From positions 1-63,708 of the forward strand of contig JAEOTZ010000033.1 of assembly GCA_016839585.1 (NCBI GenBank): 63,708 nucleotides of DNA, in the 5' to 3' direction. Shown here one piece after another: positions 10,197 to 63,700 of the stretch. The DNA is from Promethearchaeota archaeon (lineage in GTDB: Archaea > Asgardarchaeota > Lokiarchaeia > Sigyniarchaeales > SOKP01). Numbering within the stretch: position 1 is the first letter of the stretch; the number at the start of each line of letters is the position of its first letter. The notes beneath the pieces were generated by a model. The model was not told the origin of the DNA and did no database searches. It saw nothing but the letters and a program-made list of their open reading frames with translations. Made by a program: the position numbers and the translations under genes.

Positions 10197-10245
10197 TAAA
10201 AGCAGGTAAACCTGCCAACGCCCTGGATTTTTTCAGTCTTGATTT
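10197..10245 (+). ncRNA. Candidate small structured RNA, copy A of the CCCUGGAUUUUU family
   Basis: TATATAAA at 10171, hairpin GCAGGT-AA-ACCTGC (10202-10215), then AACGCCCTGGATTTTT, identical over 16 nt to 28662-28677 (minus strand). Confidence 0.4.
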
Positions 10246-10269
10246 GATCGTTTTATATAAGAAATTTTT

Positions 10270-10518
10270 TTATAACTCATTTTCTAATAAGTTCTTCTTC
10301 TCTTCATCATTAAATACGTCAATAAAACCTCCTAACTCCTGCCGAGACAGCATGTTCTCATCATCGACAACGCCAAAAAACTCTTTATCAAAATCTAAAT
10401 TACATTTAGGACAATGGATAAAATCATCAAAATCTATGATTTTTTCATTTTTACATCGAGGACAGTAATATTTCTTTTTCTTATTCGCCTTAGTCATTTT
10501 TTTATAGTTTTTATACAT
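10270..10518 (-). CDS. Small Zn-ribbon protein
   Basis: CPRC...CPKC; paralog at 29283-29567. Confidence 0.8.
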   Translation of the reverse strand: MYKNYKKMTKANKKKKYYCPRCKNEKIIDFDDFIHCPKCNLDFDKEFFGVVDDENMLSRQELGGFIDVFNDEEKKNLLENEL

Positions 10519-10704
10519 TTATGAGCCTATTATTTCTCTATCACATTTCTAATTTTGAAATCCTATTAGAATTGAAATTTGGATTTATTAATGTCCTAAT
10601 TTTGATTATTGAATAAAATTCTATTTTTTATGTATTTATAGATTTTGTCCTAGTACATGTCCTAATGCATTAATCTTAAATTAAAAAAAATCAGTTTTAA
10701 AAGT

Positions 10705-12396
10705 ATGGCAAAAATTAATATTATCCCTGAAAAAATCCCTAATCAATTCATAGAAAGAAACCAATATGAAGATATCATCCTTTATGCTTTATCCCTTTAT
10801 GGTCCACTGAAACGTGAGGAATTTATAAATAATAAAGATAAGGGCATAATCAACAGAATGAACAAAAACACATTTCATAAATGGGCAAAAAAATTAAAAA
10901 ATAAGAATTATATAAATGTCTCTCGTGAAGGGAAGTATAGTATTTACATAATCACTAATTTAGGAGTAAAAGAGTTAGTAAAACGATTGAAATCATATAA
11001 TCTAGATATAAAAACTATTCTAAATTTAGAGCGGAAATCAATATCTAAAATAGTCAATTTGAATATTCAGTTTTTTAGAAATTTCGAAATAGAAAATGAA
11101 GATATTATGATTGAGTTTCTCAAACTTAAAAATGAAATAACAAGGGATAGATTAAAAAACTTTTCTGAAGAAAAATTTAATAGAGCAATCTTATACCTAA
11201 CCCTAAACCACCCTAAATTTTATGATTCTTATGGGCTCGTGAATATTTCAATTGATGATTTTATTAATAAATATGGTAGTGATATTTTATCAAAAGATGA
11301 ATTAAAATGGTTTCTTCACAGGATTAGTATGAAAAAAATTACAGAGATCTCATTCTACAAATTAAAGCTAGTAGAGAGGGGAATAAATTTATATTTTAGG
11401 TCAAGTGAGGTATTTGGTAACATTTTTGAAAAGTCTATTCAGTCAATACTTAGAGAGCATTATTACTTACAACATATACACAAAAATAAATTCCAAGAAC
11501 TCATTATTAATGAAGTATGTGAAGAAATTACAACTGATCTTATTAATAAATATAAATTTTTTCATAAAGACCTTGAACCCGCTTTATATGATACAATAAA
11601 ATATTATTTATTAACACTCTTAAAAGATCTTAAAAGAAAAGCGTTAATAAAGAGTTTTGACTTATATGAAATTCCCACTCTAATTTTAACATCTAAAATT
11701 TTCGATTTTGAAAGGTTGGATTATTTACAAAAAAGAACTTTATTCCATATTGAGGAAGCATATAATGCTAAATTACCCATTGACTATCGGGATAATATTA
11801 AGTATGCCAATAAATTCATTAAAAAAGCTTTAGATTTTAATAGAAATAATTTGTATAATTATGCCTTAAAAGCACAAATTTTACATCTTACAGGGGATTA
11901 TAATGGAGCATTAGAAACAATACATAAAGCTATTGAATTAGATCCTCAGGAAGCGAATTATTATTCAGATTACGCATTTTTTTTAAACTGGCAAAATAAA
12001 TACGAGGAAGCCTTAAATGCAATAAATAAAGCTATTGAATTAGAACCATATAATGCAGAACACTATTCAGATTTGTCAAGCATTTTCTGGTCTTTAAATC
12101 AACATGAACAAGCTTTAGAGGCTATAAATTTAGCTATAAAAAAAAACGTTCATAATATTAAGTATTATATAAAAAAGGCAAATTGTATAGCCTATGATTT
12201 ACATAGTTATAAAAATGCATTGATGGTGTTAGAAAATGCATTCCATCTTAAACCTAAAAAATTAGAGCTTCTTGAAATTTATAAAACCAAAGCAGGAATT
12301 TTGCTTAGTATGAAGGACCATGAAGCTGCACTCAAAATAATTAGAAAAACAAGACGTCTATATCCCAATAAAGAGATTTACCCAAATATACATTAA
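10705..12396 (+). CDS. Winged-helix + TPR repeat protein
   Basis: N-terminal wHTH (IILYAL...TFHKWAKKL...YIITNLG) and C-terminal TPR repeats (EEALNAINKAIELEP). Confidence 0.8.
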   Translation: MAKINIIPEKIPNQFIERNQYEDIILYALSLYGPLKREEFINNKDKGIINRMNKNTFHKWAKKLKNKNYINVSREGKYSIYIITNLGVKELVKRLKSYNLDIKTILNLERKSISKIVNLNIQFFRNFEIENEDIMIEFLKLKNEITRDRLKNFSEEKFNRAILYLTLNHPKFYDSYGLVNISIDDFINKYGSDILSKDELKWFLHRISMKKITEISFYKLKLVERGINLYFRSSEVFGNIFEKSIQSILREHYYLQHIHKNKFQELIINEVCEEITTDLINKYKFFHKDLEPALYDTIKYYLLTLLKDLKRKALIKSFDLYEIPTLILTSKIFDFERLDYLQKRTLFHIEEAYNAKLPIDYRDNIKYANKFIKKALDFNRNNLYNYALKAQILHLTGDYNGALETIHKAIELDPQEANYYSDYAFFLNWQNKYEEALNAINKAIELEPYNAEHYSDLSSIFWSLNQHEQALEAINLAIKKNVHNIKYYIKKANCIAYDLHSYKNALMVLENAFHLKPKKLELLEIYKTKAGILLSMKDHEAALKIIRKTRRLYPNKEIYPNIH

Positions 12397-12671
12397 AACC
12401 GTATTATTATCTGCCATTCAAAGCAATATTGGCAAAAGTTCAAAATTTTTCTTTATACATTTCCTTTAAGCAGTCTTCATACTTTTATGCTGCATAGTCC
12501 GACGCACTGGAAATATTAAAAAAAAAGTGTATTGTTATAATGATCATTATTAGTGCGGATGTATTTATGATGAAATGAGAGATTAGCATTATCTACACCA
12601 ATAAATAACTAAAGTATAAATTGAGAAGATTATTTCAAAAATTTAAATTAAATCCAAATGGAATATACTAT

Positions 12672-13583
12672 TTATTTTGTCGTTTCTGCTAATTTTAATA
12701 ATATTTTGTAGTATTTTCGTAAAGTAGGTTCAGTTACTTTTATTGCAATTGATATTTCTCTCTGAGATCTATGTTCTCCTTCTAATAGGCAAGCAGTGTA
12801 GATAGCTGCTCCTGCTATTCCAATAGGAGATTTACCAATAAGAAATCCATTTTTCTCCGCTAATTTCAATAATTCAGATGCTCGATTTTGAACTTTTCCC
12901 GAAATATTTAACTCTGCACAAAATCTAGCAACATAAATTATTGGTGAAGGCACTCCAATTTTTATGTCTAATTCTTTTGAGAGCAATCTAGAATATTTAG
13001 AGATTTTATTTTTTTGGATTGGTAATAGATCATTAAAATCATCAAAAGTCTTAGGAATATTATAAGATTTCCAAGAGATATAAATTGCTGCTAATAATAA
13101 TGCTTCAATAGATCTTCCTGCAGTTAATTTTTTATTAACAGCTTTCCTAAGGATATAAGCTGTCAATATTTTAGAATCTTTTGACATTTTTAACTGTGAA
13201 GCTAATCGATCTAATTGACTCATAGCATAAGCAAAATTTTTTTCTGCAGATTTAATCCTTCGAGTTCTTGTGTGCCATTTCCGTAAACGATGAAAATCTG
13301 ACATAGTTTGAGGGTTGATAGACTTCCCAAAAGCATCTCTATTTTTCCGATCTATTGTAGTACTTAATCCTTTATCATATAAAGTAAAGTTTATTGGGGG
13401 ACCTACTCTAATTTTATGTTTTGCTTCTTCAGAGGTAAATGCTCGCCATTCGGGACCAAGATCTATAATTCGCTGCCATAATACCAATCCGCATACATTA
13501 CAGACAATCTCACCCCGAATATTATCTGAAATTAGAACATTATTCCCACATTCTGGACATGTTTCTATTTTTCTCTTTACCAT
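12672..13583 (-). CDS. tfb: Transcription initiation factor TFB (accessory paralog)
   Basis: CPEC...CNVCG Zn ribbon, GPEWRAF B-reader and two cyclin repeats (GRSIEA, GKSPIGIAGAAIY). Confidence 0.95.
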   Translation of the reverse strand: MVKRKIETCPECGNNVLISDNIRGEIVCNVCGLVLWQRIIDLGPEWRAFTSEEAKHKIRVGPPINFTLYDKGLSTTIDRKNRDAFGKSINPQTMSDFHRLRKWHTRTRRIKSAEKNFAYAMSQLDRLASQLKMSKDSKILTAYILRKAVNKKLTAGRSIEALLLAAIYISWKSYNIPKTFDDFNDLLPIQKNKISKYSRLLSKELDIKIGVPSPIIYVARFCAELNISGKVQNRASELLKLAEKNGFLIGKSPIGIAGAAIYTACLLEGEHRSQREISIAIKVTEPTLRKYYKILLKLAETTK

Positions 13584-13987
13584 TCTTTTATATTCAATGA
13601 CTTTTGCATGAATTTTTTTAAATATTTAACTTTCAAATAAAAATTTAAGAGTTTCATTTATCAGAGGACTAATTATATCAAAAAGATCAAATTTCGTATT
13701 TTGCTGATTTCTGCTCGTATTATCGTCTCCTTGCCAGAGTTTAATTTCACTCTCTATTATAATGGGCATTCTTTTTAAACCTCTTTTTAAATCTTTTATA
13801 GATTATATATATCTGAATTATGAAGATTTGTTAATATCATAAATTTGTAAAAATTAAGATTTAAAAAGCCAATTAAAAATATGGAATTTCTGAGAAGAGA
13901 AATGCTTCTCTACTATAATTTTATCTTTTTTAATTTTTTTCCAAGGAAAATAAATATGTTAATATATAATCATTTTCGTGATTTAAA

Positions 13988-14803: not shown

Positions 14804-15052
14804 AAGTAAATTTTATAGATATATTTTTCATTTTTTTTATTATTTAATATCCAATAAACCAAGAACAAAATATTTAACTTATTGTCTAGATAAGAAGCGT
14901 TGATAAACAAATCGAAATATTCTAAAATATATTTACGTCTTTAGATTATTTAAAGAAAAAGCTTTATCCTGAGTAATATTTCACAGAACTGTAAAATTTA
15001 TAAAATAGAAAAATCAACTATTATATTGGAACAAGGATAAAATTTTAACAAA

Positions 15053-15171
15053 GGCTCCTATCATCACCCTGGATTTTTGTCTTTTGTTAGTGTAAAAATT
15101 TACACTATGATTTCGCCCTCCTCTCCCTATTATATTTTTGACCTTATACTTAGGTCCTGATGACAGGAGCC
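15053..15171 (+). ncRNA. Candidate multibranched small RNA, copy B of the CCCUGGAUUUUU family
   Basis: Closing helix GGCTCCTATCATCA/TGATGACAGGAGCC (13/14); inner hairpins TAGTGTAAA/TTTACACTA and GACCT/AGGTC; single-stranded motifs shared with copies C and D; TTTATAAA at ~14997. Confidence 0.5.
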
Positions 15172-19695: not shown

Positions 19696-21330
19696 ATGTT
19701 AGATAAATATGGTAAAACAGATTTTCAGAGAAAGGTATCTGAAATAATAAAACAGAGACTTAATACAAGCTTCTTTAATAATTACCAAGAAAAAGCAATA
19801 AAAATAATTTGGGGGCTTTCAAAGGAACAAAGAAACCAAAAATCTCAAAAAAATAAAGAAAAAGATACTAGAAAGTATGAACAAAAAACCCTATTTCCAT
19901 TAAATCAAAAAGCTGAACCCGAACCAAATTTTGGTGTAATCCCAGAAAATCTTAAATTTGATCAAAATGTAATTATAAATTCACACCAATATTATTCATC
20001 TGCGGTTATAATTGGTCCACCTGGAACTGGAAAAACAATTGTTATTGTTAACGGAAGTTTATTATTTATTTCTGCTCCAGTATATCGCAGATCAATGCCA
20101 ATAGTTTATATTGGAACACCTACTAATGAATCAGCAAATCGTATATTGCAGGCATTTCATGAATTTTTTGAAAATAATGATATAGAGGATGGACATAAAT
20201 ATGTTAAGAGAGTCTTTCCCAAAAAAGCGAAAAACTTTTTTATATTACCATTAAAGGATTATATACTTGAAAATCCTCGTCCTCCAAATTATCTTCTAAA
20301 AGAATATCAATCGATGATCTCAATGGCTTGGATCTTTATAGGAACTGTATTCCAACTTCAATTATTATCCAAAAAATATTTCATTAATCCCCAAGTAATC
20401 CTTTATGATGAAGCCTCACAATTAACACCACCTGAGATGTATTTACCCTTTTTTTATGAGAATAATCTTTCACCTAATATCAGAGGCTCTTGTCTAGTAG
20501 GAGATAATTGTCAATTATCACCTATTACATCATTTACAGAATTAAGTACTAATGCTATAGATTTCGCAATTAGGAAGCTTCATTTTGGACAACAAAATGT
20601 TCCTATCAAAAGACAAATTATGCTTAGAAAGCAATATAGAATGCATCCAGCAATACGAGATTTATCAATGAAATTCGCTCCAGGGCGCCATATTATAAGA
20701 GATGGAGATAATACAAAACAAAGGTCACATCTATTACAAAATTTTAAAGAATATAATGGTAATTTTTCGAAAAAAATATATAATATCTTAAATCCTCAAA
20801 AGACAGTCGTAATTATTGATACTTCCAATATAGATGATGCGATTAATCAAAGAGTCGGAAGTTCTCGATATAATATTGGAGAAGTAAATATTGTTAGGGG
20901 TCTATTTAAACTAATTCAACACACTTATAATTTTGATGAATCTAATGAAGAATTTTTAAAATTAATTACACCATATAAGAATCAAGCTACACGATTAAAA
21001 TTGATCTATGAAAAAGCAGGCACAGCAGATAGTTTCCAAGGTCAAGAAGCAGATATTGTGCTAATTAGCTTAACATTAACTGATTGTGTTCCATCACCTC
21101 ACATAAGAGATAACCACCGACTGCATGTTATGTTTTCAAGAGCAAGAAAAAAAATGATAATTATTGGGAGAAAAAGCACTTTTGAATCACCCGAAACAAA
21201 TGCCCCCCATATTCGAGATATATTTTATTATAAATATAGTCCTTCAAATCGAAATACTGATTTAGGATATAAACCGGAATACATTATTTCTCTAAAAAAT
21301 GATTTTTATGATTTTTTATCAAAAATTTAA
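19696..21330 (+). CDS. Superfamily 1B (Upf1/Dna2-like) helicase
   Basis: GPPGTGKT, TPTN, DEASQ, LVGDxxQLxP, QYRMHPAI, ITPY, TADSFQGQEADIV and SRAR motifs. Confidence 0.93.
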   Translation: MLDKYGKTDFQRKVSEIIKQRLNTSFFNNYQEKAIKIIWGLSKEQRNQKSQKNKEKDTRKYEQKTLFPLNQKAEPEPNFGVIPENLKFDQNVIINSHQYYSSAVIIGPPGTGKTIVIVNGSLLFISAPVYRRSMPIVYIGTPTNESANRILQAFHEFFENNDIEDGHKYVKRVFPKKAKNFFILPLKDYILENPRPPNYLLKEYQSMISMAWIFIGTVFQLQLLSKKYFINPQVILYDEASQLTPPEMYLPFFYENNLSPNIRGSCLVGDNCQLSPITSFTELSTNAIDFAIRKLHFGQQNVPIKRQIMLRKQYRMHPAIRDLSMKFAPGRHIIRDGDNTKQRSHLLQNFKEYNGNFSKKIYNILNPQKTVVIIDTSNIDDAINQRVGSSRYNIGEVNIVRGLFKLIQHTYNFDESNEEFLKLITPYKNQATRLKLIYEKAGTADSFQGQEADIVLISLTLTDCVPSPHIRDNHRLHVMFSRARKKMIIIGRKSTFESPETNAPHIRDIFYYKYSPSNRNTDLGYKPEYIISLKNDFYDFLSKI

Positions 21331-23994: not shown

Positions 23995-24999
23995 TTAGAT
24001 GATTAAATGTGAATTATAATCTCGAATACCGTCATAAGTTATTGTGAAAACCGCATTATCATTAGGTAAATGTGGTGCTTCTACAATTTTAGCAATCCGA
24101 GTCGCTCCTCTTCCTTTTAATAATTCAATTTGAATAGATGAGTTATAAAACACAATACTCCCCCCAGCAGGTTTGTTTTTCTTGAGATTAGGATCATAGG
24201 TTACTTGATTTGTAATTACTATTGCTAACTCATTGAAAGATTTAAATAATTTCAATAAGTCAAGCATATGGGTATCTAACCTTTGTTGCCTTTTTAAAAA
24301 AATAGATTCTCCAATGTATTCACTACGGAAGTGACCTATTAAGGAATCTATTATTAATAATTTAATATTCTTCTTCTTAATTATTTTGGACGCTTCTCTT
24401 ACAAGATGTATTTGATGTTCACTGGAATAAGCTCGACCTACAATGATCTTTTTTAACACATGACAATAATCCATATTTAAAGCATCTGCCATCCAAATAA
24501 TTCTTTCAGGACGGAAGTTATTGTCAGTATCTAAATATAATGCACATCCTTCCATGCCTCCCTCGTCATATGGGCGTTGTGCATTTACGCAAAGTTGGTG
24601 AGCAAATTGAGTTTTGCCAGTTCTATATTCTCCAAATATTTGAACTAATTGCCCAGGTTGAATCCCTCCGCCCAATAATTTATCTAATTTTAAACACCCT
24701 GTTGAAATTCCTAAACATTTCTTTAGATTACTCCGATTTTTTTTTTCACAATGGTCTTTCAAAAATTCTTGTGCTTTTTTTATCAATTTAACTCCGATAT
24801 CAAAACTAATGCCTGTTTTTTTAATAACCAATATTGGCGTTATAGCCAATAATTTAACTGTATCAATCTGAGATTTTTGTAACTTATTTTTAATTGATTT
24901 TTTGATTTTTAATTCTTCTAATTTGAAATCTTCTTGATAATTTGATACAGAATTTAGCACTTGGAGTTCATGAGAGCTTAAAATATACATATTAGACAT
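23995..24999 (-). CDS. radA: RadA/Rad51-family recombinase (accessory paralog)
   Basis: ISTGC..LDKLLGGG, GEYRTGKTQ, FRPERI, IIDSLIGHFRSEY, RQQRL, TNQV and PAGG motifs, with an N-terminal HhH-like domain. Confidence 0.92.
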   Translation of the reverse strand: MSNMYILSSHELQVLNSVSNYQEDFKLEELKIKKSIKNKLQKSQIDTVKLLAITPILVIKKTGISFDIGVKLIKKAQEFLKDHCEKKNRSNLKKCLGISTGCLKLDKLLGGGIQPGQLVQIFGEYRTGKTQFAHQLCVNAQRPYDEGGMEGCALYLDTDNNFRPERIIWMADALNMDYCHVLKKIIVGRAYSSEHQIHLVREASKIIKKKNIKLLIIDSLIGHFRSEYIGESIFLKRQQRLDTHMLDLLKLFKSFNELAIVITNQVTYDPNLKKNKPAGGSIVFYNSSIQIELLKGRGATRIAKIVEAPHLPNDNAVFTITYDGIRDYNSHLII

Positions 25000-25340: not shown

Positions 25341-26489
25341 TTATTTTGTGATTTTATCTTTAAATAAATATTTAAACTTCAATGATTTTAATTCGAGGAA
25401 TTCTTTGTAAAAATGAAGGTATTTTTCTTTGTTGACACCAATTGCATAACTGCACCGACCTTGGACATTCATCAATTTATTTAGTAGAATGTCTGATAAT
25501 TCTTTCTCACAGTCTACATTTCTTAATTCATGGAGAGCAGCTCGAAGTTTTTTTACCCATTTTCGAGGAAGTGTTAAATGTGATTCATGGGCAATAATTC
25601 CAGTAATCTTCTGTCTTTTTCTTGAAATGAACTCTTTTTGGTAGTTTATATAGAATCCTGATTCTTTAATCAACTCTCTTACTTTAAATCTTAATTCAGT
25701 TGGAACAATTTTCCTTGTTTTACTTGAAAAAGTAATATCATCAGCATACCTAGAGTATTCAAAATTATATTTACGAGCTAATTTATATAAAGCGTAATCC
25801 AATTCGGTTGAAATTAAATTAGAAATATATGGAGAGCTCGGAGCTCCTTGGGGAAGAATGCTCTCAGTATTTTTTAGTAATTTTAACTTCCCATTGGAAT
25901 GTTTACGTGGCAAATATGTAGTTAAATTGGTCAATAAAAACGATATAACTTCTGAATATCCAAATTTCGATTTATACATTTTAAATACATCGGTAAATTT
26001 AATCGTTGGAAAAAAGTTTTTTAAATCCAAGATGTAGATAACTTTAAAACCGTAATGTTGTTCTGCATTTTTTATATTAGATTTTGTTGGGATAAAACCC
26101 ATAGCAAATCGAGAAGATTTTACATTTAAAAGAATACCTTCATAAATTTTTTTTTGAATCTTTTTTAACTCGTCAACTGGAGTGATAATATATCGTTTTC
26201 CACCTGCCTTTTTTTTTATTGGAAATATCTTATATGAAGATTCAGCAGGAACAATTTCTTCTTTTACACTCCCATATCTTATTAAAGTTGAAAATTTTAT
26301 ATCCAGAAATTCTGCTAAATCAAAAGGTCTGATAAATATAGGTAATTTATGTGTGTTCAGAAATGTAAAATTCGGAACAATATCATTCATATATCTCCCA
26401 AATTGAGATAAATAATGCTCTGAAAAATGAAATCCACACCTTACCAAATAGTTTTGATGATATTGCGTTATGGTGGTCAAGATAATCAA
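25341..26489 (-). CDS. Retron-type reverse transcriptase
   Basis: IKKKAGGKRYI, NAEQH (retron NAxxH), LDLKNFFPTI, LPQGAPSSPYISN, YSRYADDITFS and QKITGI (retron VTG-like). Confidence 0.88.
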   Translation of the reverse strand: MIILTTITQYHQNYLVRCGFHFSEHYLSQFGRYMNDIVPNFTFLNTHKLPIFIRPFDLAEFLDIKFSTLIRYGSVKEEIVPAESSYKIFPIKKKAGGKRYIITPVDELKKIQKKIYEGILLNVKSSRFAMGFIPTKSNIKNAEQHYGFKVIYILDLKNFFPTIKFTDVFKMYKSKFGYSEVISFLLTNLTTYLPRKHSNGKLKLLKNTESILPQGAPSSPYISNLISTELDYALYKLARKYNFEYSRYADDITFSSKTRKIVPTELRFKVRELIKESGFYINYQKEFISRKRQKITGIIAHESHLTLPRKWVKKLRAALHELRNVDCEKELSDILLNKLMNVQGRCSYAIGVNKEKYLHFYKEFLELKSLKFKYLFKDKITK

Positions 26490-26707: not shown

Positions 26708-27286
26708 TTACCTTCTAAATTCTTTTAAAAAATTATTTCCTTCAATTTTGACAATTTTTATTTTTATATTCGGGAAAAGAATGACTTCTTTTTCATTTAA
26801 TCCAATCGTTAATTCACAATTTTTTAGTAAAGTTAAAGCCCAATTAACATCTTTTTTAAAGACTAAACCCGTTATTTCATAATCTTCATCACAAACTTCT
26901 TCATATGGAGGAAATGAAGAATCCCTACTCCAAGCCCAAAATTCTGGAAAGCCCCCTTGACTCAAGGCAAACAACTCTTCTTTACAATTATTAAGAAAAT
27001 TATTCACATTTGTTAAATCCCAAAAACTATAGATTTTAAAAGGATCTGGGAATGATTGGAAATATTTAATTAAGTAATTAAATTGGTTTGTTATTTTCTC
27101 TTCAAGCATTTTCATGGCTTCCATTTTAGATATTTTTACGGTATATACAATATTCTCTATATGTGTTTTAAGCTGATCAGGATAAAAACATCTCCATTCT
27201 TTTAAAAATAACCTTAAATCTCTTTTCATATTCCCTACTTGCTGTATATTTACTTTTAAAAAATTAAAATCTCTATTATTTATCAT
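26708..27286 (-). CDS. Hypothetical protein, possible ADP-ribosyltransferase fold
   Basis: KIYS...WAWSR...ITGLVFKKDVNW...EKEVIL arrangement resembles R-S-ExE ARTs, but the first Arg is absent. Confidence 0.35.
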   Translation of the reverse strand: MINNRDFNFLKVNIQQVGNMKRDLRLFLKEWRCFYPDQLKTHIENIVYTVKISKMEAMKMLEEKITNQFNYLIKYFQSFPDPFKIYSFWDLTNVNNFLNNCKEELFALSQGGFPEFWAWSRDSSFPPYEEVCDEDYEITGLVFKKDVNWALTLLKNCELTIGLNEKEVILFPNIKIKIVKIEGNNFLKEFRR

Positions 27287-27320: not shown

Positions 27321-27860
27321 TTATCTATTTTCCTCTATTTCAGTTATTCTCAATTGTTTAGATACCTTATGATAGATTTCAATCGCAATTAATTCTCTCG
27401 CTACTTGTATTTCAGCAGATTTGAATTGTTTTGAAGTAATAATTCCTTCCCATTCACTTTCTGCAAAATCATCATAATTTATTCCATATTCTTCCAAGAG
27501 GTGTTCAAAGATGTAATCTTGAACATTCGAGAGGATTATATATTTAGGATATTTAATGTAATACTTCCCATCTAACTTTTTCTTCTTAATAAATTTATTA
27601 ATAGAATTCGGCTGCTGATGTTTGATACAGTAAAGATATTTTTTTTCAACTTTGAATTCCTTTTGACTAAATGGCTTTAACACCCAAATCCAAATACTTT
27701 CAGCTCTTAATATTTCTCTTAATGATGAAATTTCTTTCTCAGTGATTTTTATATCAAATTTACTTTCTAATTTATATATATAATCATCCTCATCTTCACC
27801 AGTCTTTTTGGCAATCTTTTCCAATGCCAATAATATATCTTCAACATTATACTCATTCAT
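27321..27860 (-). CDS. Hypothetical protein
   Basis: 179-aa ORF, 4-bp overlap with the upstream gene. Confidence 0.75.
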   Translation of the reverse strand: MNEYNVEDILLALEKIAKKTGEDEDDYIYKLESKFDIKITEKEISSLREILRAESIWIWVLKPFSQKEFKVEKKYLYCIKHQQPNSINKFIKKKKLDGKYYIKYPKYIILSNVQDYIFEHLLEEYGINYDDFAESEWEGIITSKQFKSAEIQVARELIAIEIYHKVSKQLRITEIEENR

Positions 27861-28256: not shown

Positions 28257-28586
28257 TTAAAATTCAATCAAATGATTTTTTATTACATTAATAACCATCT
28301 TCTCAATTTGCTTCTTATTGAGCTTAAAATTTTTACTATATATGAGAAATTCAAGTTGATTATCTTTAAATCCCCACAATATCTCATCAAAATATTTTGG
28401 AAATAACTTTTTTAATGATTTATATACTTTTATCGAAATAGTATCCCCTAAACGTAATTTTCTATTATCTTTATCATGAGTGAGATTAAAACGTAAGACT
28501 TCTTCATAGCTCTTCACTATATGGATTTTATCTTTATAGATTTCTCTCCTTTTATTTTTCTTTAACACGTTATTATATTTTGACAT
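28257..28586 (-). CDS. Hypothetical protein
   Basis: 109-aa ORF with AGGAG SD. Confidence 0.7.
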   Translation of the reverse strand: MSKYNNVLKKNKRREIYKDKIHIVKSYEEVLRFNLTHDKDNRKLRLGDTISIKVYKSLKKLFPKYFDEILWGFKDNQLEFLIYSKNFKLNKKQIEKMVINVIKNHLIEF

Positions 28587-28653
28587 CTTATTACTCCTTT
28601 CTTATCTTAAATCGAAAATTGGAAGTTTACTTAAAGGGTAAAGAATATCTCAC

Positions 28654-28733
28654 CAAAAGACAAAAATCCAGGGCGTTAAGACCATTTCTTAGACTAAGAA
28701 TAATGCCTCTCCGAAAGTTGAAATGGTTCTTAA
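28654..28733 (-). ncRNA. Candidate structured RNA, copy C of the CCCUGGAUUUUU family
   Basis: Helix TTAAGAACCATTTC/GAAATGGTCTTAA followed by CGCCCTGGATTTTTGTCTTTTG; 20/20 identity with 15067-15086. Confidence 0.45.
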
Positions 28734-28883
28734 CCAAATGTATAGGGTTAACGTAGAATTTTGAGATCTTCCCTACTTTCCTTGCCAACTTCTCAACCTT
28801 ATGAAAAATATTAAAACCTCCTTTCCTTATTGTTTTTAATTCTTTTTTATTAGATATGAGCAAATATTTTATTGATTTCTTTT

Positions 28884-49769: not shown

Positions 49770-51962
49770 TTGAAAATGATTCACCTAAACAATATTAAAG
49801 TGAGTATTCAAAGAAAAGAAAATCTTGAAGGAAAAAAAGAAAAAGTGCTTAATATTGAATGTAGCACGTGTCCAGAATATTCTAAACAATTTTTGAAAAA
49901 TGAGAAATGTTATTATTGCCTTTTCAATTGTGTAAAAAATAACAAGAATAAAGGATTTGAAAAAATATATATTCAAGCTTTAGACGCCTTAACAGATCAA
50001 AAAACAACGAAATTAATTCTTGAATGTTTTAAAAACATGGAAAAAGCTGAAAAATATTATTCTAAACTATTGAAATTAAGAGAAACCTGTGTTTATAGGG
50101 ACAAGTTTGGGTGTAGAATCTTTGGAGATTTTGAATCTTTCTTTGCTTTAAATGAACAAGATCTTATAGATCCAATATCATTATATTTCAAGACACAACA
50201 AATTATAAAACAAGTTGAAAGTTTTAGTTCTCCAGATCCGGTCTGCTCTGATTGCATTGAAAAAAGTATAGAAATTGTAAATCAATTATTATTAATTTTA
50301 GATTCAGGGTTAATAAGAAAATATAAAACAGTCCAGCAGAAGAGTTCCTTATTTGAGGACCCCTTTTACTTTTATGAGTTTCTGATAACAAAATCTCACT
50401 CAATAAATAAAAGCTATGATAAATCAGTTCTTTCTAAAACAACAATTGGTGAAATGAAAAAGGAAGGATTACTGCAATCATACCAAATTGGTAAGGGTTT
50501 GTTTCAAATTCAAGTATTCGGAATAGCAAACAAGACAGAAAAAATATATTATTATCATTTAATTCATGATTCTGAATCAGAAAAATCCTATTTTGAGAAA
50601 TTGATTGAAAATATCCTTTCTTATATGCAAGTTTTAAGATTTGATGACATAGTTTCGTTGGAAAATTTAATTGAGTTGTATGAGAAAGAAGCCTTACGAA
50701 TTATTGAACTCAATTATAAAATGGCTGACAATAGGAAAAAAAGAGTGGCATTTTACGCCGCCATTACATTTCTTCAATTAAACAAACTTTTCCCGCTTTT
50801 AATTGACAATTATATAGAAGAAATATTTTTAGATTCCCCGGAGAGTAAGATTTACATCGATCATCAAAAACATGGACGCTGTCGTACCAATTTAACTTTA
50901 TCTGGCAAGGACATAAAGCGAATAATTACATTATTACGGTTGTATAGTCAACAGAGATTGGATTATTCAAATCCGACTCTAAAATATGTCATTAAAAACA
51001 AATATTTTTACTGTAGATTTGCCATTGATGTTAAACCTATTAATGTCAATGATTTTTCCTTAGATATTAGGAAATTGAATAAAAACATATTAACAATTCA
51101 AGATTTAATGAAAACAAATACTCTTAATCCTCTAATGACCGCGTTTCTTTACTTCTGTATGATAAGAAGAGTAAACATAACAGTAACAGGAGAGACTGAT
51201 ACTGGCAAGACTACATTAATTAACGCATTTGACATGATTTCCCCTGAATACTTCCGAAAAATTTATGTAGAAAATGTCACCGAATCATTAGAGCAATTAA
51301 TTTTTAATAAACATCAGCTCAAATATCAAGCAGACTCCTTAGATACAAATAATAAGGAGGGATATACAAAAAGCGACCACATAAAAACATTACTTCATCG
51401 CACACCTGATATTATTTATTTAGGTGAGATTCTAACAAAAGAAGAAGCAGAAGCTATGTTTCACTGTTTGGCTGCCGGATTAAAAGGTTTTCAAACTATT
51501 CACTCTCAAAACATTGATTCTTTAATAAATAGGCTGATTCATACATTCAAAATTAATTTTGCTCAATTAGATGATTTGGATCTATTAATCTTAATGACTC
51601 GGGATTTTTATAAAAGAAGGATTGTATCTATTTCAGAAATTGATTTAACAAATTATCATGCCGGTGATTACTATAGGGAGATCTTTCTTTATGAACCTGA
51701 ATCAGAGAAGTGGAATTTACTCAAAAAGCTTTATGAGACTAAGCTAATTACTAAATTAAAGAAGTTTGAGAAATTAAAAGAAGATTCTTTTAACAATTTT
51801 ATGACTTTTTACGAAGAAATCTTTCGGTATCTCTTAAATTGTGAAAAGATTAGGAATGACGAATTAGTTAACTTGTTCAATGAATTGGCACATTTTTCTA
51901 TTATATCTCATTTAGAGGCTCGAAATTTTTGGGAAAAGTGGAAAAAAGAGCATGAATATTGA
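49770..51962 (+). CDS. Type II/IV secretion ATPase (TadA/VirB11/ArlI-like) with a Cys-rich N-terminus
   Basis: IEEIFLD, LDIRK, GETDTGKTT, VENVTE, LLHRTPDIIYLGEI and QTIHS motifs. Confidence 0.92.
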   Translation: MKMIHLNNIKVSIQRKENLEGKKEKVLNIECSTCPEYSKQFLKNEKCYYCLFNCVKNNKNKGFEKIYIQALDALTDQKTTKLILECFKNMEKAEKYYSKLLKLRETCVYRDKFGCRIFGDFESFFALNEQDLIDPISLYFKTQQIIKQVESFSSPDPVCSDCIEKSIEIVNQLLLILDSGLIRKYKTVQQKSSLFEDPFYFYEFLITKSHSINKSYDKSVLSKTTIGEMKKEGLLQSYQIGKGLFQIQVFGIANKTEKIYYYHLIHDSESEKSYFEKLIENILSYMQVLRFDDIVSLENLIELYEKEALRIIELNYKMADNRKKRVAFYAAITFLQLNKLFPLLIDNYIEEIFLDSPESKIYIDHQKHGRCRTNLTLSGKDIKRIITLLRLYSQQRLDYSNPTLKYVIKNKYFYCRFAIDVKPINVNDFSLDIRKLNKNILTIQDLMKTNTLNPLMTAFLYFCMIRRVNITVTGETDTGKTTLINAFDMISPEYFRKIYVENVTESLEQLIFNKHQLKYQADSLDTNNKEGYTKSDHIKTLLHRTPDIIYLGEILTKEEAEAMFHCLAAGLKGFQTIHSQNIDSLINRLIHTFKINFAQLDDLDLLILMTRDFYKRRIVSISEIDLTNYHAGDYYREIFLYEPESEKWNLLKKLYETKLITKLKKFEKLKEDSFNNFMTFYEEIFRYLLNCEKIRNDELVNLFNELAHFSIISHLEARNFWEKWKKEHEY

Positions 51963-51986
51963 AAGTAAGAGGAGGGAAAATTTAAG

Positions 51987-52289
51987 TTGAATTATCTAGC
52001 CATATTATTATTCCCTATTTGTTTTTTATTCCTGTTAATTATTGTCTTATTCATATATGTTTTGCTATCTGGAAATTCATTAGTTTCAATTCTTTGTTTT
52101 ATGGTATATATAATCCTCTTACTAACCTTTTATTATTTCCTGGAAAAATTAAGGCAATTTATTGTGGATACCGGTCTGAAATTTCTGGTTTTTTTTAACT
52201 TTATTTATTATTTAGCAACAGTCGTAAATTTCTTTATTGGAGTCATTCTTTTCATTATGGTTTTGTATCATTTAATTTTAAATCCTTAA
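51987..52289 (+). CDS. Small membrane protein (3 TM)
   Basis: GGAGG SD, highly hydrophobic 100 aa. Confidence 0.7.
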   Translation: MNYLAILLFPICFLFLLIIVLFIYVLLSGNSLVSILCFMVYIILLLTFYYFLEKLRQFIVDTGLKFLVFFNFIYYLATVVNFFIGVILFIMVLYHLILNP

Positions 52290-54115: not shown

Positions 54116-54204
54116 ATTACCAATTTGTCGTAGTTTATATAGATTTTCTTCAATAATATAATAAAAAAATCCTTTGACAAAATCAGATTGTAGGTAGGAT
54201 TAAT

Positions 54205-54459
54205 ATGGCAAAAAGCGAAATGATAGAAATAATCCAGGGATCAAAGGAGTTTTTATCTCCTTTACAATATAATATACTTAAAACCTTACGATCCCTTGGG
54301 CCCTTAACACGTAAGGATTTAGTAAAAGAACTGAAAAACCCAAGAACCACAATTTATGACAACCTTATAAAGCTTCAGAAACGTAAAAGAATTGAAAAAT
54401 ACTCACGCAATAATGGGAGAATAGGAAGACCCAGCGTTTTTTGGAAGATGAGAGATTAA
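54205..54459 (+). CDS. TrmB/MarR-like wHTH protein
   Basis: GPLTRKDLVKEL..PRTTIYDNL...GRP...W. Confidence 0.85.
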   Translation: MAKSEMIEIIQGSKEFLSPLQYNILKTLRSLGPLTRKDLVKELKNPRTTIYDNLIKLQKRKRIEKYSRNNGRIGRPSVFWKMRD

Positions 54460-59692: not shown

Positions 59693-59717
59693 ACAACTTA
59701 GTAGATTAAAAATATTG

Positions 59718-60015: not shown

Positions 60016-60033
60016 TGGAGGGAAGTGACTTAA

Positions 60034-60207: not shown

Positions 60208-60429
60208 ATTATTTTATAAAAGAACTTAGAATTTCTATGGTTTCCTACCTTTATTCAACCGAAAAATGTAAAAGCTTTTTGGAAAAGTAAGTTTTCAGAG
60301 AATTAGAGAATTTCTATTCCTATAAGGATTTCTATCAGATTTTCTGTAGAAAATCCCTTTGTAAAAAAGATTTAATACTCTATAAAATATAATATAAAAT
60401 ATTTAAAATGATCCAATTTGGTATAAAAT

Positions 60430-60606
60430 ATGTCTAAAGAGAAGAAGATCTTTACCTTAGAAAATGTAAGACTAGCTTCAATGGGACCAGATACTATTGT
60501 TTATATCCCAAGAGCTTTAGTTAAGCATAAAGTTCTTGATCCTGAAAAGAAATATAACGTGCATTTTGAAGAGATTCTTGAGGAAAAACAGGAAAAGGAA
60601 AATTAA
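60430..60606 (+). CDS. Small AbrB-like protein
   Basis: Manual translation: MSKEKKIFTLENVRLASMGPDTIVYIPRALVKHKVLDPEKKYNVHF. Confidence 0.65.
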   Translation: MSKEKKIFTLENVRLASMGPDTIVYIPRALVKHKVLDPEKKYNVHFEEILEEKQEKEN

Positions 60607-61142
60607 TCTCCTTCTCGATAGGAACAAGTATTATAAATATCAAACATTATTTTATTATCTTTTAGAAGTTTAATAATATCTGGGTGATAATCTAATACTA
60701 TTTTCTTTTTTTTAGTTATTTTTATTGTCTGTGGTATATATAATTTATTATGAGATTCTTTTAGTGGAATATAACTAGATAGATATGCTGTTTTATTGTT
60801 ATACTTAATATGACAAATGTAATTCTCGACATTGACTATTTTCTTATCTTTTCTAACTCCTCTGAATTGCAATGATACTGTTTTTTTATCATTTTCAACC
60901 TTAAAATATTCTACTAAATGTGATAGATCTTCGGGATGAACTATTTTATAAAATTCTCTTTTCTTCCATTGAGAAACTTCTTCTTCAGTATATCCAAATA
61001 TTTCACCAAATCTCTTATTAAAATATTTTAAATGGCCTCTTTGAATAATTGCAATTCCCATTGTAGATTTATCAGCAAAATGAAGAAATGTGTCATCCCT
61101 TAATTTAGTAGTAAATTCCTCATTAATTTCTATTCTTGACAT
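60603..61142 (-). CDS. Stand-alone PAS domain protein
   Basis: GIAIIQ...YFNKRFGEIFGYTEEE...IVHPED...RKD. Confidence 0.88.
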   Translation of the reverse strand: MSRIEINEEFTTKLRDDTFLHFADKSTMGIAIIQRGHLKYFNKRFGEIFGYTEEEVSQWKKREFYKIVHPEDLSHLVEYFKVENDKKTVSLQFRGVRKDKKIVNVENYICHIKYNNKTAYLSSYIPLKESHNKLYIPQTIKITKKKKIVLDYHPDIIKLLKDNKIMFDIYNTCSYREGD

Positions 61143-61407
61143 ATTCTTTATCCCTAACCAATTTTAATTTTTCCTTAGTTTGCTAATTTTTGGCAGTATA
61201 AATAAAATACTTTTCATATTTATGTTTTTTTAATGATAATTTGTGGTAAAAATTCATTTAAAGAATTTAAAAGATTTAAAGAAAAAATTAAAAAAAGAAG
61301 ATTTAAATTTATTTAATTTAATTATATTATTGCTATATAGGGAAGTCTATAGGGGATTTTATAAGAATACATTTTAATTTAATTAATTCATACATTAAAA
61401 ATAGAAG

Positions 61408-61974
61408 GTGGGAGAAATTAGCAATGATTTAGTCTTCAAAATATGTCTTTTTGGAGATAAAAATGTTGGAAAAACGTCATTAATCCAAAAAAGTATTCAA
61501 AAAATGTTCAATAAGGAAACAAAACCACCTACATGTATAGATTTTGCGATTAAAAAGTTAACAATGAATTCTTTTAAAATTGCACTTCAAATTTGGATTC
61601 TTAGAAGTGATCCTCAGTTTAAATTTCTTTTCCCCATTTTTACTGGAGGTGTATCCGGAGGTATTTTTATGTATGATATCACCAACTATTCCAGTATAAG
61701 TAACGTAGAAAAGTGGATAACAACATTTAAAGAAGGTTTATCTAATGATAGAAAGAAAATTCCTCTATTATTGGTTGGTGGAAAGTTAGATCTCCATAAA
61801 GAAAGAGTATTATCTAGAAATAATGCTAAAAAAATCTCAAAAAAATATAACTTCTTGAAATATTTCGAATGTTCCTCTAAAACTGGACAAAATATTGAAA
61901 AAATCTTTGAATCTTTAACGAGATCCATACTTAACCATGAAGATTATTTTAATAAAACTAAACAAAATATTTAA
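61408..61974 (+). CDS. Rab-like small GTPase with degenerate G3/G4
   Basis: FKICLFGDKNVGKTS, MYDITN and ECSSKTG; WDxxGQ is replaced by WILRSD and NKxD by GKLD. Confidence 0.88.
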   Translation: MGEISNDLVFKICLFGDKNVGKTSLIQKSIQKMFNKETKPPTCIDFAIKKLTMNSFKIALQIWILRSDPQFKFLFPIFTGGVSGGIFMYDITNYSSISNVEKWITTFKEGLSNDRKKIPLLLVGGKLDLHKERVLSRNNAKKISKKYNFLKYFECSSKTGQNIEKIFESLTRSILNHEDYFNKTKQNI

Positions 61975-61988
61975 AGGAAAAAAAAATT

Positions 61989-62657
61989 ATGGGTGAAAAA
62001 TTCAAAAGTCAAGTAGTCGCAGAAATGATAAATAATGTGGAAAAAATCGCCAGAGATTATGAGTTAGGCATTAAAAAAAACAAATTTGAAATAAAGTGTC
62101 CTTACCCAAAAATAATTCAAACCTATGAAAGCATAATACAAATGCTCATTAATTACGGTTGGAATGAGCAAGCCATGATTTACAATAATCAAATTAAATT
62201 TTATCAAGAAAAACTAGAGAAAGATAAAAAATTGCGCATAATTGAAGTTCAAAAAGTGCAAAAACAAAAAGAAATTGAAGGATTATATAAAAATAAGGAG
62301 ATAGATACAATTAAAGCAGTAATTCTCTCACTCAATAGAGAGGAGAAGATTTTAGATTTTGAAGAGAAAAAGAAAGAAAAAATTAAAGAGTCTGAAGAAA
62401 TCTTTAATATGATTAGTAATGCTGAAAGAATGGCAAAAGAATATGAAAAGGAAATAAATAAGGGTAGGATCCTTCATCTTGATTGTCCGTATGAAAAAAT
62501 AATAGAAATTTACAAAGAAGTTAAAAAAAGATTAGAAAGTATTGGTTGGAAAGAAGAGTCGAATAAATTGATTGATTCAATCAGATATTATAATGACAAA
62601 CTTGAAAAAGATAAAAGATTAAGAGAAATTGAAGAGAGAAAATTAGCTAAAGAATAA
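61989..62657 (+). CDS. Helical protein with two internal repeats
   Basis: Repeated A.xYE...CPY.KII.xY...GW.E...xY..KLEKDK.LR unit. Confidence 0.8.
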   Translation: MGEKFKSQVVAEMINNVEKIARDYELGIKKNKFEIKCPYPKIIQTYESIIQMLINYGWNEQAMIYNNQIKFYQEKLEKDKKLRIIEVQKVQKQKEIEGLYKNKEIDTIKAVILSLNREEKILDFEEKKKEKIKESEEIFNMISNAERMAKEYEKEINKGRILHLDCPYEKIIEIYKEVKKRLESIGWKEESNKLIDSIRYYNDKLEKDKRLREIEERKLAKE

Positions 62658-63629
62658 TAAATGCCTTTTATCTTATAAAAATTTATTACTCTAATTTTGA
62701 GGAATTAGAACCAAATTGGAAAAGAAAGTAAAAACTTAAATAATAGTAGTCTATTATTGAATTGCCAGAAGGTAATTCAAAGACAGGTATAATTACTCTT
62801 TCATAATTTAATTTTGTATTCGGATAATAATATTATCTAAATAACTGAGGGGGGCAATTAATATAAAGATTGAAGTAATTGACAAGAAAAAAAATAAGAT
62901 ATATTATGTATCAGAAGATTTTAAAATCGAATATAAGGGTAAACAGATATCCCTTAAAGAACTCCAAACTGAAGAAAAAAAAATTATAAGTATAATATTC
63001 CAGGAAGATGGAACAATTGATATTTGTTATAAATAATGATAAGAAATAATTGAAATTTAAAGTAGACTAAATTCTAATTTTGATGAAAAAATCAGAATGT
63101 GAAGATTTAAAGATTTAGTCGGTTTAATTACTTTTGAATCTCTTTTTTTTTTCTTTTTTTACAGCAATTAGTTAAAATTGATCATTTTGGACATCAAAAT
63201 AAAGATTTAAATTTAGTGAGGTAATTATATAACTACCTATAAGGAATTTTATAAAAAATTCTATAAAAATCATGTTTTAATCAAACTACAGAATACTCTA
63301 AAAATAGAGGTGTAAAAAAATAGTTAAGAAAAAGAGAGAAAAGAAAAAGAAAGTGAAGCAAGAAGATAAAGAGGAAGAGAAGGAGGAAGTAAAAGAGGAA
63401 GAGAAAGAAGGAGAAAAGGAAGAATAATAATTACTTAAATGTAAGTCAATTTAAATTTCTCTCATTGTTTCCGAATAATCCTTGATTTTTCCATAATCTT
63501 AGTAAATATCCTAAAAAGAATGAAATTGCAATTTATTGAGTCAGATCCACAAAAATGTAAATGTTTGAATATTTGAATGTGTCTATAAAAATAGGGAAGA
63601 GAAATTTATTCTAAATTAATTTGAGCTAG

Positions 63630-63700
63630 CATTGGATTTCGCCCTCTATTAAACTCTATTGAGTTTAATCTCTCCCTGGTATTTTTATGTCTGTTCAGAT
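63630..63700 (+). ncRNA. Candidate structured RNA, copy D of the family (may extend beyond the window)
   Basis: GATTTCGCCCTC (shared with copy B) + hairpin ATTAAACTC/GAGTTTAAT + CTCTCCCTGGTATTTTTATGTC. Confidence 0.4.

Follow-up and report, generated by a model that had tools for sequence, protein, structure and literature searches.

Trans-acting sibling sRNAs of bacteria, such as the LhrC and RsaE types, depend on Hfq/Sm proteins and carry C/U-rich anti-Shine-Dalgarno seeds. Sm-class snRNAs share a site with the consensus RAU4-6GR, which in U7 snRNA reads AAUUUGUCUAG, and some small ribozymes exist in circularly permuted forms (hammerhead types I–III; twister P1, P3 and P5). Asgard archaea are the closest known prokaryotic relatives of eukaryotes and, to our knowledge, few non-coding RNAs have been described in them beyond the universal ones.

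Here we analyze a 63,708-nt stretch of DNA from a Lokiarchaeial genome (the window), for which a preliminary description had proposed four dispersed loci, A to D, as one family of structured elements with an Sm-site-like motif. We find that B and D each represent an undescribed family of genes for small, structured non-coding RNA, and that the two families are related. Both families have a common core, a large internal loop clamped on both sides by covarying helices. The strands of this loop are a U-rich module, M1, and a C/U-rich, G-poor module, M2, that contains UUCGCCCUC.

Results

Shared motifs in the window and the genome

The identities on which the proposed family was based are all present in the sequence: 20/20 nt between B and C, 16/16 nt between A and C, and GATTTCGCCCTC plus CTCTCCCT common to B and D. 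All four loci lie between ORFs, as had been stated. CCCTGGATTTTT matched exactly at 10221(+), 15067(+) and 28662(−); with up to one mismatch it matched four times (0.87 expected), and none of 100 shuffles gave four or more. GATTTCGCCCTC occurred at 15109 and 63635, against an expectation of 0.07. There were eight copies of the exact 12-mer genome-wide: one, on contig C60, apparently lies in coding sequence, and the other seven belong to these elements or to paralogues of them. For the second module, M2, the shared core is UUCGCCCUC, short of the full 12-mer. The variant CCCTGGTATTTTT reported for D is indeed there, but it is peculiar to this species, and the consensus of the D family is CCCUGAUUUUAAAAUUU. 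The idea of small structured RNA elements that combine different helices with shared unpaired modules was borne out, but the four-locus family was not upheld as a whole: B and D belong to conserved families, while C is species-specific and A is probably not a member.

Locus B belongs to a conserved family of structured RNAs

Locus B has the following parts.

15053-15171, + strand: locus B, full member of a family of ~115-135-nt B-type RNAs
15053-15066 paired with 15157-15171, + strand: helix P1
15067-15086, + strand: module M1
15088-15107, + strand: hairpin P2
15108-15139, + strand: module M2 and C/U-rich linker
15140-15156, + strand: hairpin P3
15172-15179, + strand: probable archaeal terminator, ATC and a T5 run directly after P1
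14999-15052, + strand: AT-rich region upstream of B, candidate promoter region
14999-15010, + strand: TATA-like TTTATAAAATAG upstream of B
15036-15049, + strand: TATA-like GGATAAAATTTTAA upstream of B

The order is P1-M1-P2-M2-P3-P1, and the RNA ends lie in one helix. Locus B carries P1, M1, P2, the M2 linker and P3 in this order and scores significantly (134 and 128 bits) with the two covariance models that we built, R1 and R2, the combination that defines the family. Its predicted fold has a minimum free energy of −33.5 kcal/mol (z = −5.8). Among 91 family sequences, all 23 modelled pairs of the three helices change on both sides; pairing is kept in 92.6% of cells, sliding the partners lowers this to 29-46%, and none of 500 shuffles reached the observed values. 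Many G-U pairs are possible on this strand only. The signals around the RNA are conserved as well, with TATA-like AT-rich elements on the 5′ side, including AAGATAAAAATT upstream of related copies, and a T-run on the 3′ side, preceded at the same spot by (A/T)CC in nearly all members.

Because of the compensatory changes and of G-U pairs possible on just one of the two strands, we read B and D as RNA, and it is very likely that B, D and their relatives are real structured RNA gene families. A search of Rfam 15 with the window and five further loci returned no match at gathering thresholds. When the cut-off was relaxed to E ≤ 10, only snoRNA and lncRNA matches of chance level appeared, far below their thresholds. 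With nothing similar in Rfam 15 or in the literature that we searched, these RNAs have not been described previously.

Every genome sampled from the GTDB family of the window (25/25 and 21/21) gave a match to the B model, with 1-6 B-type copies per genome. The invariant 19-mer of the family was found exactly in more than 117 stretches, nearly all from Asgard MAGs. One sister genus, including a closed 6.04-Mb genome, has divergent copies with UUUUGUCUUUUUGG, a hairpin and UUGAUUUCGCCC. The covariance-model search did not find the B family in the other families sampled. The scan of relatives that had been suggested shows the elements kept across one GTDB family and one sister genus, but not Asgard-wide. 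The main B copy has shared flanks at ~40 loci/genomes, a 139-aa four-helix membrane protein on the 5′ side and a radical-SAM/HMPTM gene on the 3′ side; its chromosomal position is fixed and its inheritance vertical. Genes beside the copies in general are unrelated housekeeping genes or genes of unknown type.

Conserved strands of the B-type core

M1 of the B family is CCUGGAUUUUUGUCUUUUG, and the unpaired 19-mer contains AU5G, single-stranded between helices in every copy. This heptamer raises the possibility that the RNAs form snRNA-like particles of the Sm class: a closed Sm ring would sit on AU5G, and the particles, as prokaryotic forerunners of snRNPs, would serve in RNA processing. The location of GAUUUUUGU between helices in all B copies is in keeping with this reading, as are the recurrence of the motif in differing scaffolds, like the Sm site across snRNAs, and the four LSM-domain genes of the Asgard host. 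Against it, no Rfam model of an snRNA (U1, U2, U4, U5, U6 and U7 domains) or of any other family matches even at E ≤ 10, so the label 'snRNA-like' given earlier is not sustained. Moreover, within the phylum sample the families turned up in one GTDB family and one sister genus only, the D family has AUUUUA where an Sm site would have AU4-6G, and no intron or processing target was identified. We regard such particles as improbable, and it is just as doubtful that M1 is a genuine Sm site for an Asgard Sm-like ring, which would make these the first prokaryotic Sm-class RNPs, built on modular scaffolds.

The M2 linker contains only 6.6% G, and CCUCC occurs in 49/91 B-family copies and is missing in 42/91. 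In a subset of copies, an element of the upstream leader covaries with CCCUAUUUUAUUU, a part of M2 that may thus be paired instead of free; these copies are likely to form a pseudoknot with the 5′ leader. The lineage uses GGAGGU-type ribosome-binding sites, and the 3′ end of its 16S rRNA is GGAUCACCUCC. One reading of these RNAs is a decoy or sponge, in which a hairpin and the GAU..CCUCC strand mimic the 16S rRNA 3′ end (helix 45 plus GGAUCACCUCC). Instead of regulating particular mRNAs, they would either titrate a 16S-end-binding factor or sequester Shine-Dalgarno sequences across the board. The 16S rRNA of the genus ends in CUGGAUCACCUCC, M1 of B contains CUGGAU, GAUUUCGCCCUCCUCC comes after a hairpin in B, and a multi-copy RNA would suit this role. 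However, the resemblance is short (6 nt plus CCUCC), the pentamer is lacking in the copies counted above, and the C-run is folded into a hairpin in the sister-genus copies. We consider a decoy unlikely.

Locus D and a permuted family

Locus D is cut by the contig end.

63594-63708, + strand: locus D, a D-type RNA truncated by the contig end to its 5′ three quarters
63594-63604, + strand: leader GGGAAGAGAAA
63618-63626, + strand: 5′ strand of P1
63635-63646, + strand: M2
63647-63669, + strand: conserved hairpin
63670-63692, + strand: M1-like strand
63693-63701, + strand: 3′ strand of P1

Homologues of D were found in 21/24 genomes of the genus, and D gave no match to the B-family model. Its closing helix covaries: AAUUUGAGC, AAUCUGA, AAUUUGUGCG and AAUUCGCA each occur with the matching 3′ strand, and a full D-type copy in a relative folds with z = −5.1. 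Contigs C16, C42, C64 and C76 have identical 127-nt ends, which shows that at least two near-identical D copies broke the assembly.

D, like C, has the order stem-M2-hairpin-M1-stem, with the RNA ends in the other helix. Since their ends lie in different helices, the B and D/C architectures look like circular permutations of each other. This relationship, the invariant junction strands between covarying helices, the likely leader pseudoknot in a subset of copies and the multi-copy nature of the RNA would all be compatible with a new small catalytic RNA, for example a self-cleaving one whose permuted forms would correspond to the hammerhead or twister types, or with a protein-free tertiary core made by the conserved junction strands. 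Yet the conserved strands, ~20-30 nt long, U/C-rich and G-poor, do not look like the compact cores of known ribozymes, there is no match to a known ribozyme family, and the main copy is one syntenic gene of the chromosome that is not repeat-associated. We consider either kind of RNA improbable, and a new class of naturally permuted ribozymes is a long shot, comparable to the Sm-site reading.

Loci C and A and a possible fifth member

The remaining loci comprise the following features.

28638-28776, − strand: locus C, species-specific element with D-type module order
28776-28763 paired with 28651-28638, − strand: closing stem of C
28733-28720 with 28688-28676, − strand: 13-bp hairpin of C, after an M2-like strand
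28673-28653, − strand: exact M1 of C, after the hairpin
10202-10233, + strand: locus A, a 5-bp hairpin (10202-10215), then CAACGCCCTGGATTTTTT and a T-run
54160-54250, − strand: possible degenerate fifth member, with a 9-bp closing stem and T7 after it

Locus C, which lies ~50 nt upstream of ORF 28586-28257, scored 31-37 bits with the B model over the M1/P2-like half only. Its fold is not significant (z = −0.2), and M1 is its only part conserved in the genus. An analogous permuted RNA is found in genome G008 (L210). C also heads a minus-strand gene string that ends in a retron-type reverse transcriptase (25341-26489, −; 277 bits against PADLOC RT_XIII; Pfam RVT_1), and a closing stem around hairpins resembles a retron ncRNA. 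The RNAs might then be templates of a retron-type or other reverse transcriptase, but the enzyme occurs in 4/40 family genomes and 0/4 of the genus, whereas the RNAs occur in all genomes there. Furthermore, no M1/M2 motif was found near homologues of the enzyme, and 2.1 kb and three ORFs separate it from C. We give this reading hardly any weight.

The B model scores locus A at an E-value of about 1, which is not significant, and none of 25 genomes of its genus has a counterpart; A is a motif fragment or a terminator-like element, and probably not a family member. At 54160-54250(−), the closing stem surrounds M1-like CCCUGGAUUAUU and M2-like CAUUUCGC. A one-mismatch motif match, a model E-value of 0.53 and a fold z of −1.1 are weak evidence, on which this element is a possible degenerate member.

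Partial copies (A, C and a copy on contig C64) could instead be insertion remnants of a DNA-level element: the end of a MITE or IS, an attachment site for an integrase, or a DNA motif bound by a protein. Together A and C make up a 16-bp inverted repeat that encloses 18.4 kb, copies lie at contig ends, and the 19-mer occurs on two IMG/VR contigs. These are, however, only 2 of 2.9 million viral contigs, and just one has a full match, a weak one. Pairing kept by compensatory changes and one-stranded G-U pairs speak against a DNA element, as do the low copy number and a main copy that is syntenic in ~40 genomes, and we saw no transposase or integrase beside the copies, no terminal inverted repeats and no target duplications. 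The IS/MITE-end alternative, raised with the original proposal, was set aside on these grounds, and a DNA-level explanation of any kind is highly improbable.

Discussion

A protein-bound riboregulator as the leading candidate

Our tentative choice for the most likely function is a protein-bound, trans-acting small RNA. The RNAs would be free-standing transcripts, running from their own promoter to the T-run, and would work in trans, assembled into small ribonucleoproteins. The invariant M1 strand with AU5G would be the protein docking site, for which an Sm-like (SmAP/Lsm) ring is the first candidate. M2, a pyrimidine-rich strand that varies between paralogues, would be presented for pairing with purine-rich RNA, for example Shine-Dalgarno regions; the GGAGGU-type ribosome-binding sites of the lineage would be candidate partners, and the low G content of the M2 linker and the CCUCC of about half the copies are in line with this. 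Such a scheme would resemble the Hfq-dependent sibling sRNAs of bacteria. Sm binding of AU5G is a reasonable lead only, which follows from the heptamer between helices and the LSM-domain genes (n = 4 in genome G000).

Several observations count against a protein-bound riboregulator. No extended complementary targets were found in the genome, and CCUCC is far from universal among the copies. In B and C the stretch between P1 and P2 reads G-A-U5-G-U, with a U where a canonical Sm site has a purine after the G. The 19-nt invariant stretch far exceeds the 7 nt contacted by an Sm ring, so that some further constraint is needed. Finally, the conserved junction strands, permuted topologies and possible pseudoknot would also fit a catalytic or purely architectural RNA.

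What is new here is two or three related RNA families that are strongly conserved and multi-copy, with modules in permuted order and a 19-nt invariant single strand that holds a classic Sm/Hfq-type AU5G heptamer. If the Sm-site reading were true, they would be a plausible evolutionary precursor of snRNP architecture. Even if the function is ordinary riboregulation, the covariance models allow hundreds of GC-rich islands in these genomes, otherwise unexplained, to be annotated.

Comparison with known systems

Like the LhrC- and RsaE-type sRNAs, the RNAs described here would come from small free-standing genes with several paralogues per genome and a probable T-run terminator, and have a U-rich AU5G-type site beside a hairpin and a pyrimidine-rich strand that may be exposed. 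They differ in their archaeal host, terminal closing stem, three helices and possible pseudoknot, and in a 19-nt invariant segment and modules that are permuted in sister families. Targets and chaperone binding of the RNAs described here are hypothetical.

With Sm-class snRNAs they share a single-stranded A-U-run-G between stem-loops and the reuse of this motif across differing helices, and AUUUUUGUCU resembles the U7 Sm site. In contrast to snRNAs, they have no Rfam snRNA match, a narrow phyletic range and a U after the G, and no guide of the splice-site or histone-downstream-element type was recognized. Conserved junction strands, covarying helices and variants that differ in the open helix recall the hammerhead and twister ribozymes; long U/C-rich, G-poor strands, the lack of similarity to ribozyme models and a single syntenic main copy do not. 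Y RNAs and vault RNAs are similar in size (~100 nt) and likewise have several paralogues, a terminal stem that joins the 5′ and 3′ ends, an internal loop rich in pyrimidines and a 3′ U-run, but their conserved sequence motifs differ, and there is no Rfam match.

Selection acts on the structure of the B-type RNA

The preliminary description had placed four elements in one small-RNA family with a shared Sm-site-like motif, possibly snRNA-like; they are listed here as we now define them:

10202-10233, plus strand: locus A, a 5-bp hairpin with CAACGCCCTGGATTTTTT
15053-15171, plus strand: locus B, a full B-type RNA gene
28638-28776, minus strand: locus C, a partial relative of B
63594-63708, plus strand: locus D, a D-type gene cut by the contig end

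Direct checking of the four sequences showed that they had been read accurately, and all four do lie between ORFs. With 38-48% G+C, the elements stand out locally in a genome of 3.45 Mb, 91 contigs and 29% G+C, of which the window is contig C16. Within the window, CCCTGGATTTTT occurs exactly at 10221(+), 15067(+) and 28662(-) and with one mismatch at 54228(-), which makes 4 matches at ≤1 mismatch against 0.87 expected (none of the shuffles gave as many as 4); GATTTCGCCCTC has two occurrences, at 15109 and 63635, where 0.07 are expected. The observation itself is confirmed. The reading drawn from it, an Asgard small-RNA family with common unpaired motifs, finds support at B and D, partial support at C and none at A.

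In our alignment of B copies (A2), the order from 5' to 3' is a terminal stem P1 (11-14 bp), an invariant unpaired stretch, hairpin P2, a C/U-rich linker, hairpin P3 and the 3' strand of P1, followed by (A/U)CC and a T-run. The unpaired stretch includes M1, a U-rich module with AU5G, and the linker includes M2, a C/U-rich, G-poor module. RNAalifold supported P1 and P2, with changes on both sides at 10 pairs; run on MAFFT alignments, it failed to recover two helices that were misaligned there, P3 in the B family and P1 in the D family, and these rest on the model-based alignment A3 and on duplex analysis, respectively. A3 comprises 91 matches from 87 loci, aligned with covariance model R1. All 23 modelled pairs show changes on both sides, and standard pairs fill 92.6% of cells, compared with 29-46% after a 1-3-column shift of the 3' partners (0/500 shuffles reached the observed pairing values). 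G-U pairs are frequent (one P3 pair has 24 and one P1 pair 12, for example) and would be mismatches if the opposite strand were read. The window copy folds at -33.5 kcal/mol (z = -5.8) and is the sole full match in a model scan of the window (134 bits); C matched partially, A at chance level and D not at all. Selection acts on the RNA structure, and both strands, M1 and M2, are very strongly conserved. A ribozyme or other RNA with a tertiary core is a rival reading that we regard as very unlikely.

The B-type RNA is lineage-specific, and its main copy is vertically inherited

The same genome holds further B copies: two on contig C76, a 3'-degenerate one on C64, and copies at the ends of C65 and C80 that are probably one gene. 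BLAST found 1-6 copies per genome in 23/24 genomes of the genus. A second, broader covariance model, R2, was run on 151 genomes sampled evenly across the phylum, where it found the RNA in 25/25 members of the window's GTDB family, from six genera, and gave one weak match outside the family; in an order-level sample, 21/21 family members had the RNA. Thus, the RNA is lineage-specific, not Asgard-wide. A wider range, suggested by Hermod-, Thor-, Odin- and Hodarchaeota record titles, found no support in the even sample, so 'Hermodarchaeota'/'Odinarchaeota'-type titles on some MAGs are probably loose labels. In a species-representative genome collection, the exact 19-mer CCTGGATTTTTGTCTTTTG occurred in >117 stretches among the matches listed, nearly all from Asgard MAGs and mostly titled Promethearchaeota; the ~5 bacterial matches among those listed equal the chance expectation in ~600 Gb.

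Three weaker model matches (28-41 bits) came from a sister genus, in a closed genome of 6.04 Mb. These copies retain the architecture with UUUUGUCUUUUUGG, the hairpin and UUGAUUUCGCCC, lack CCCUGGA, and carry a TATA-like TTTATATT ~26-33 nt upstream of P1. At the position of the M2 C-run they have a CCCC..GGGG fold, and some B-type copies elsewhere (L021 in genome G002; L086) have a 25-35-nt insertion forming an extra hairpin within the C-run; therefore, this part of M2 tolerates or acquires structure.

Searches of the window and further loci against Rfam 15, at the gathering threshold and at E≤10, returned nothing usable for the B- and D-type RNAs; a search for tRNA and tmRNA was also negative. 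Rfam thus has no entry for these families, and we found no description of them in the literature searched by motif string and topic.

At ~40 of ~105 B-type loci the neighbours are the same:

Upstream, 220-310 nt off, divergent: a 139-aa protein with four hydrophobic helices
Downstream, ~450-500 nt off: a radical-SAM protein with an HMPTM zinc ribbon

Common neighbours at so many loci point to a chromosomal gene, the main B copy, that is inherited vertically and has dispersed paralogues. We considered the four-helix membrane protein as a partner of the RNA and rejected it, as the conserved adjacency looks like synteny instead. A mobile or attachment element acting as DNA is a rival reading that we consider extremely unlikely: next to the copies in this genome we found neither a transposase or integrase nor any other mobile-element gene. 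The 16-nt identity between A and C forms an inverted repeat (10216-10231(+) and 28663-28678(-)) that brackets 18.4 kb, within which no integrase was seen. This interval contains:

15053-15171, plus strand: B
12672-13583: TFIIB-type gene
19696-21330: AAA_11/12 helicase
23995-24999: RadA
25341-26489, minus strand: reverse transcriptase (RT)

The 19-mer occurs in only two IMG/VR contigs, just one with a weak full match, and a virus link of the B-type RNA was dropped on these two weak matches. One contig filed as viral (UViG 3300029288_000001, 224.8 kb) has a B-type variant at its end (L216; bases 1-137(-), 46 bits); it may come from a large Asgard virus with the RNA, or be an Asgard contig that was misfiled.

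D-type genes form a second family

C16 and C42 finish with the same 127 nt, and C64 and C76, reverse-complemented, start with a common 127 nt (the C16-C64 overlap is 110 nt). Therefore, at least two near-identical D copies broke the assembly, and the window has just the 5' three quarters of D; with four contigs sharing a 127-nt end, the D-type gene is a cause of assembly breaks. The near-identical duplication takes in the gene and its upstream region (window 63582-63708; ends of C42, C64 and C76), and on C64 and C76 only a few kb separate D from B copies. More distant D copies are found on C3, C87 and C61, and across the genus 21/24 genomes have a D homologue.

Members of the D family conserve UUCGCCCUC, a near-invariant hairpin (UAUUAAACUC / GAGUUUAAU), UCUCUCCCUGAUUUUAAAAUUU and a C/U-rich tail. 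The D variant CCCTGGTATTTTT is present as first noted, but is species-specific and not the family consensus. In duplex analysis the closing helix covaries clearly, with 5' strands AAUUUGAGC, AAUCUGA, AAUCUGAGCA, AAUUUGUGCG, AAUUCGCA and GAUUCGACC, each with a matching 3' strand. In the subgroup that includes the window's genome, the tail UUUC(U/C)CUUCCC is paired to a leader GGGAAG(A/G)GAAA, and relatives differ there by one compensatory change. A relative's full copy has a rod-like fold (z = -5.1).

As general promoter signals, neither AAATAGGGAA, which showed no genome-wide enrichment and marks D copies only, nor AAGATAAAAAT held up. In a motif listing, window 51900-52020(-) has AAATAGGGAA and, ~45 nt on, UUUUCCCUCCUCUUAC; judged by these motifs, it may be another C/U-rich small transcript.

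M1 and M2 recur in permuted architectures

On the minus strand, C folds with a closing stem of 14 positions (13 paired) that encloses first an M2-like strand (AUUCUACG..CCCUAUAC), then a hairpin of 13 bp and last an exact M1, which is the D-type order. The fold is statistically undistinguished (z = -0.2), and M1 alone is conserved in the genus. An analogous RNA in genome G008 (L210) combines GAUUUCGCCC, helices and M1 with a closing stem of 11 bp; thus, permuted M2...M1 scaffolds recur. In B-, D- and C-type forms alike, a single large internal loop separates two helices, with M1 as one of its strands and M2 as the other. B has its open ends in P1, with P2 capped; D and C have the ends in the other helix and the first capped. 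Whatever the form, M1 leads into the 5' strand of one and the same helix, and M2 follows on from the 3' strand of that helix, so the three forms look like circular permutations of one module.

A has no homologue among 25 genus genomes and matches the B-type model at E ~1; we treat it as a fragment or terminator-like chance relative. A fifth candidate is possibly, on weak grounds, a degenerate relative (B model E = 0.53, not significant):

54160-54250, minus strand: CCCUGGAUUAUU and CAUUUCGC enclosed by a closing stem of 9 bp, then T7

C terminates ~50 nt upstream of the start of ORF 28586-28257, one of three ORFs upstream of the RT:

26708-27286: function not assigned
27321-27860: function not assigned
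28257-28586: function not assigned

The RT itself (25341-26489(-)) is a retron-type enzyme in an Asgard genome (277 bits to PADLOC RT_XIII; Pfam RVT_1 match) that falls below NCBIfam retron-model cut-offs, and homologues occur in just 4/40 genomes of the GTDB family. We located no ncRNA belonging to it, and a retron link of C was not supported. That these RNAs serve as templates for reverse transcriptase is extremely unlikely in our judgement.

A leader may form a pseudoknot in some B-type copies

In 23/88 B-type copies (e.g. L038, L063, L077, L112 and L058), the M2 linker has, for its 3' part (CCCUAUUUUAUUU), a complement of 10-14 nt, typically AAAUAAAAUAGGG, at 13-39 nt upstream of P1, compared with 0/86 in downstream and 4/88 in sense controls. 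Anchored on UAGG/CCUA, copies make 8.57 pairs with their own partner vs. 7.74 ± 0.17 when shuffled (0/2000 shuffles as high), and both sides have changed at least three times (AAAC.. with ..GUUU; UAAUAUAGGG with CCCUAUAUUA). AAGATAAAAATT lies 21-28 nt ahead of the leader element, and ~25 nt ahead of P1 in the second C76 copy. The pairing and this spacing suggest that in those copies the leader probably belongs to the transcript and makes a pseudoknot with P1. The window copy is without the element.

Protein binding is the most economical reading

The most economical reading would be a protein-bound small RNA. AU5G is a heptamer bound by Sm/Hfq-type rings; within M1, between helices, it would be the candidate binding site for such a ring. 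The genome has four LSM-domain genes (C74:1075-1269, C19:4134-4331, C59:53055-53300 and C7:34579-34734). An invariant stretch of 19 nt, longer than an Sm footprint, is a weak point of this reading. We rate the narrower case of a snRNA-like Sm-class RNP, as first proposed, as very unlikely.

The M2 linker has 6.6% G, contains CCUCC in 49/91 copies and differs between paralogue classes. The lineage uses GGAGGU-type ribosome-binding sites, with a 16S rRNA 3' end of GGAUCACCUCC, which we also count towards the protein-bound reading. That the RNA instead mimics that 3' end we think unlikely. That CCUCC is not universal is a further weak point of the protein-bound reading. Another is that no extended complementary targets were found: RNA complementary to M1 (G-U allowed) or M2 came only from the antisense strands of the RNA genes themselves. 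Read as protein-bound, the B- and D-type RNAs would resemble the Hfq-dependent sibling sRNAs of bacteria.
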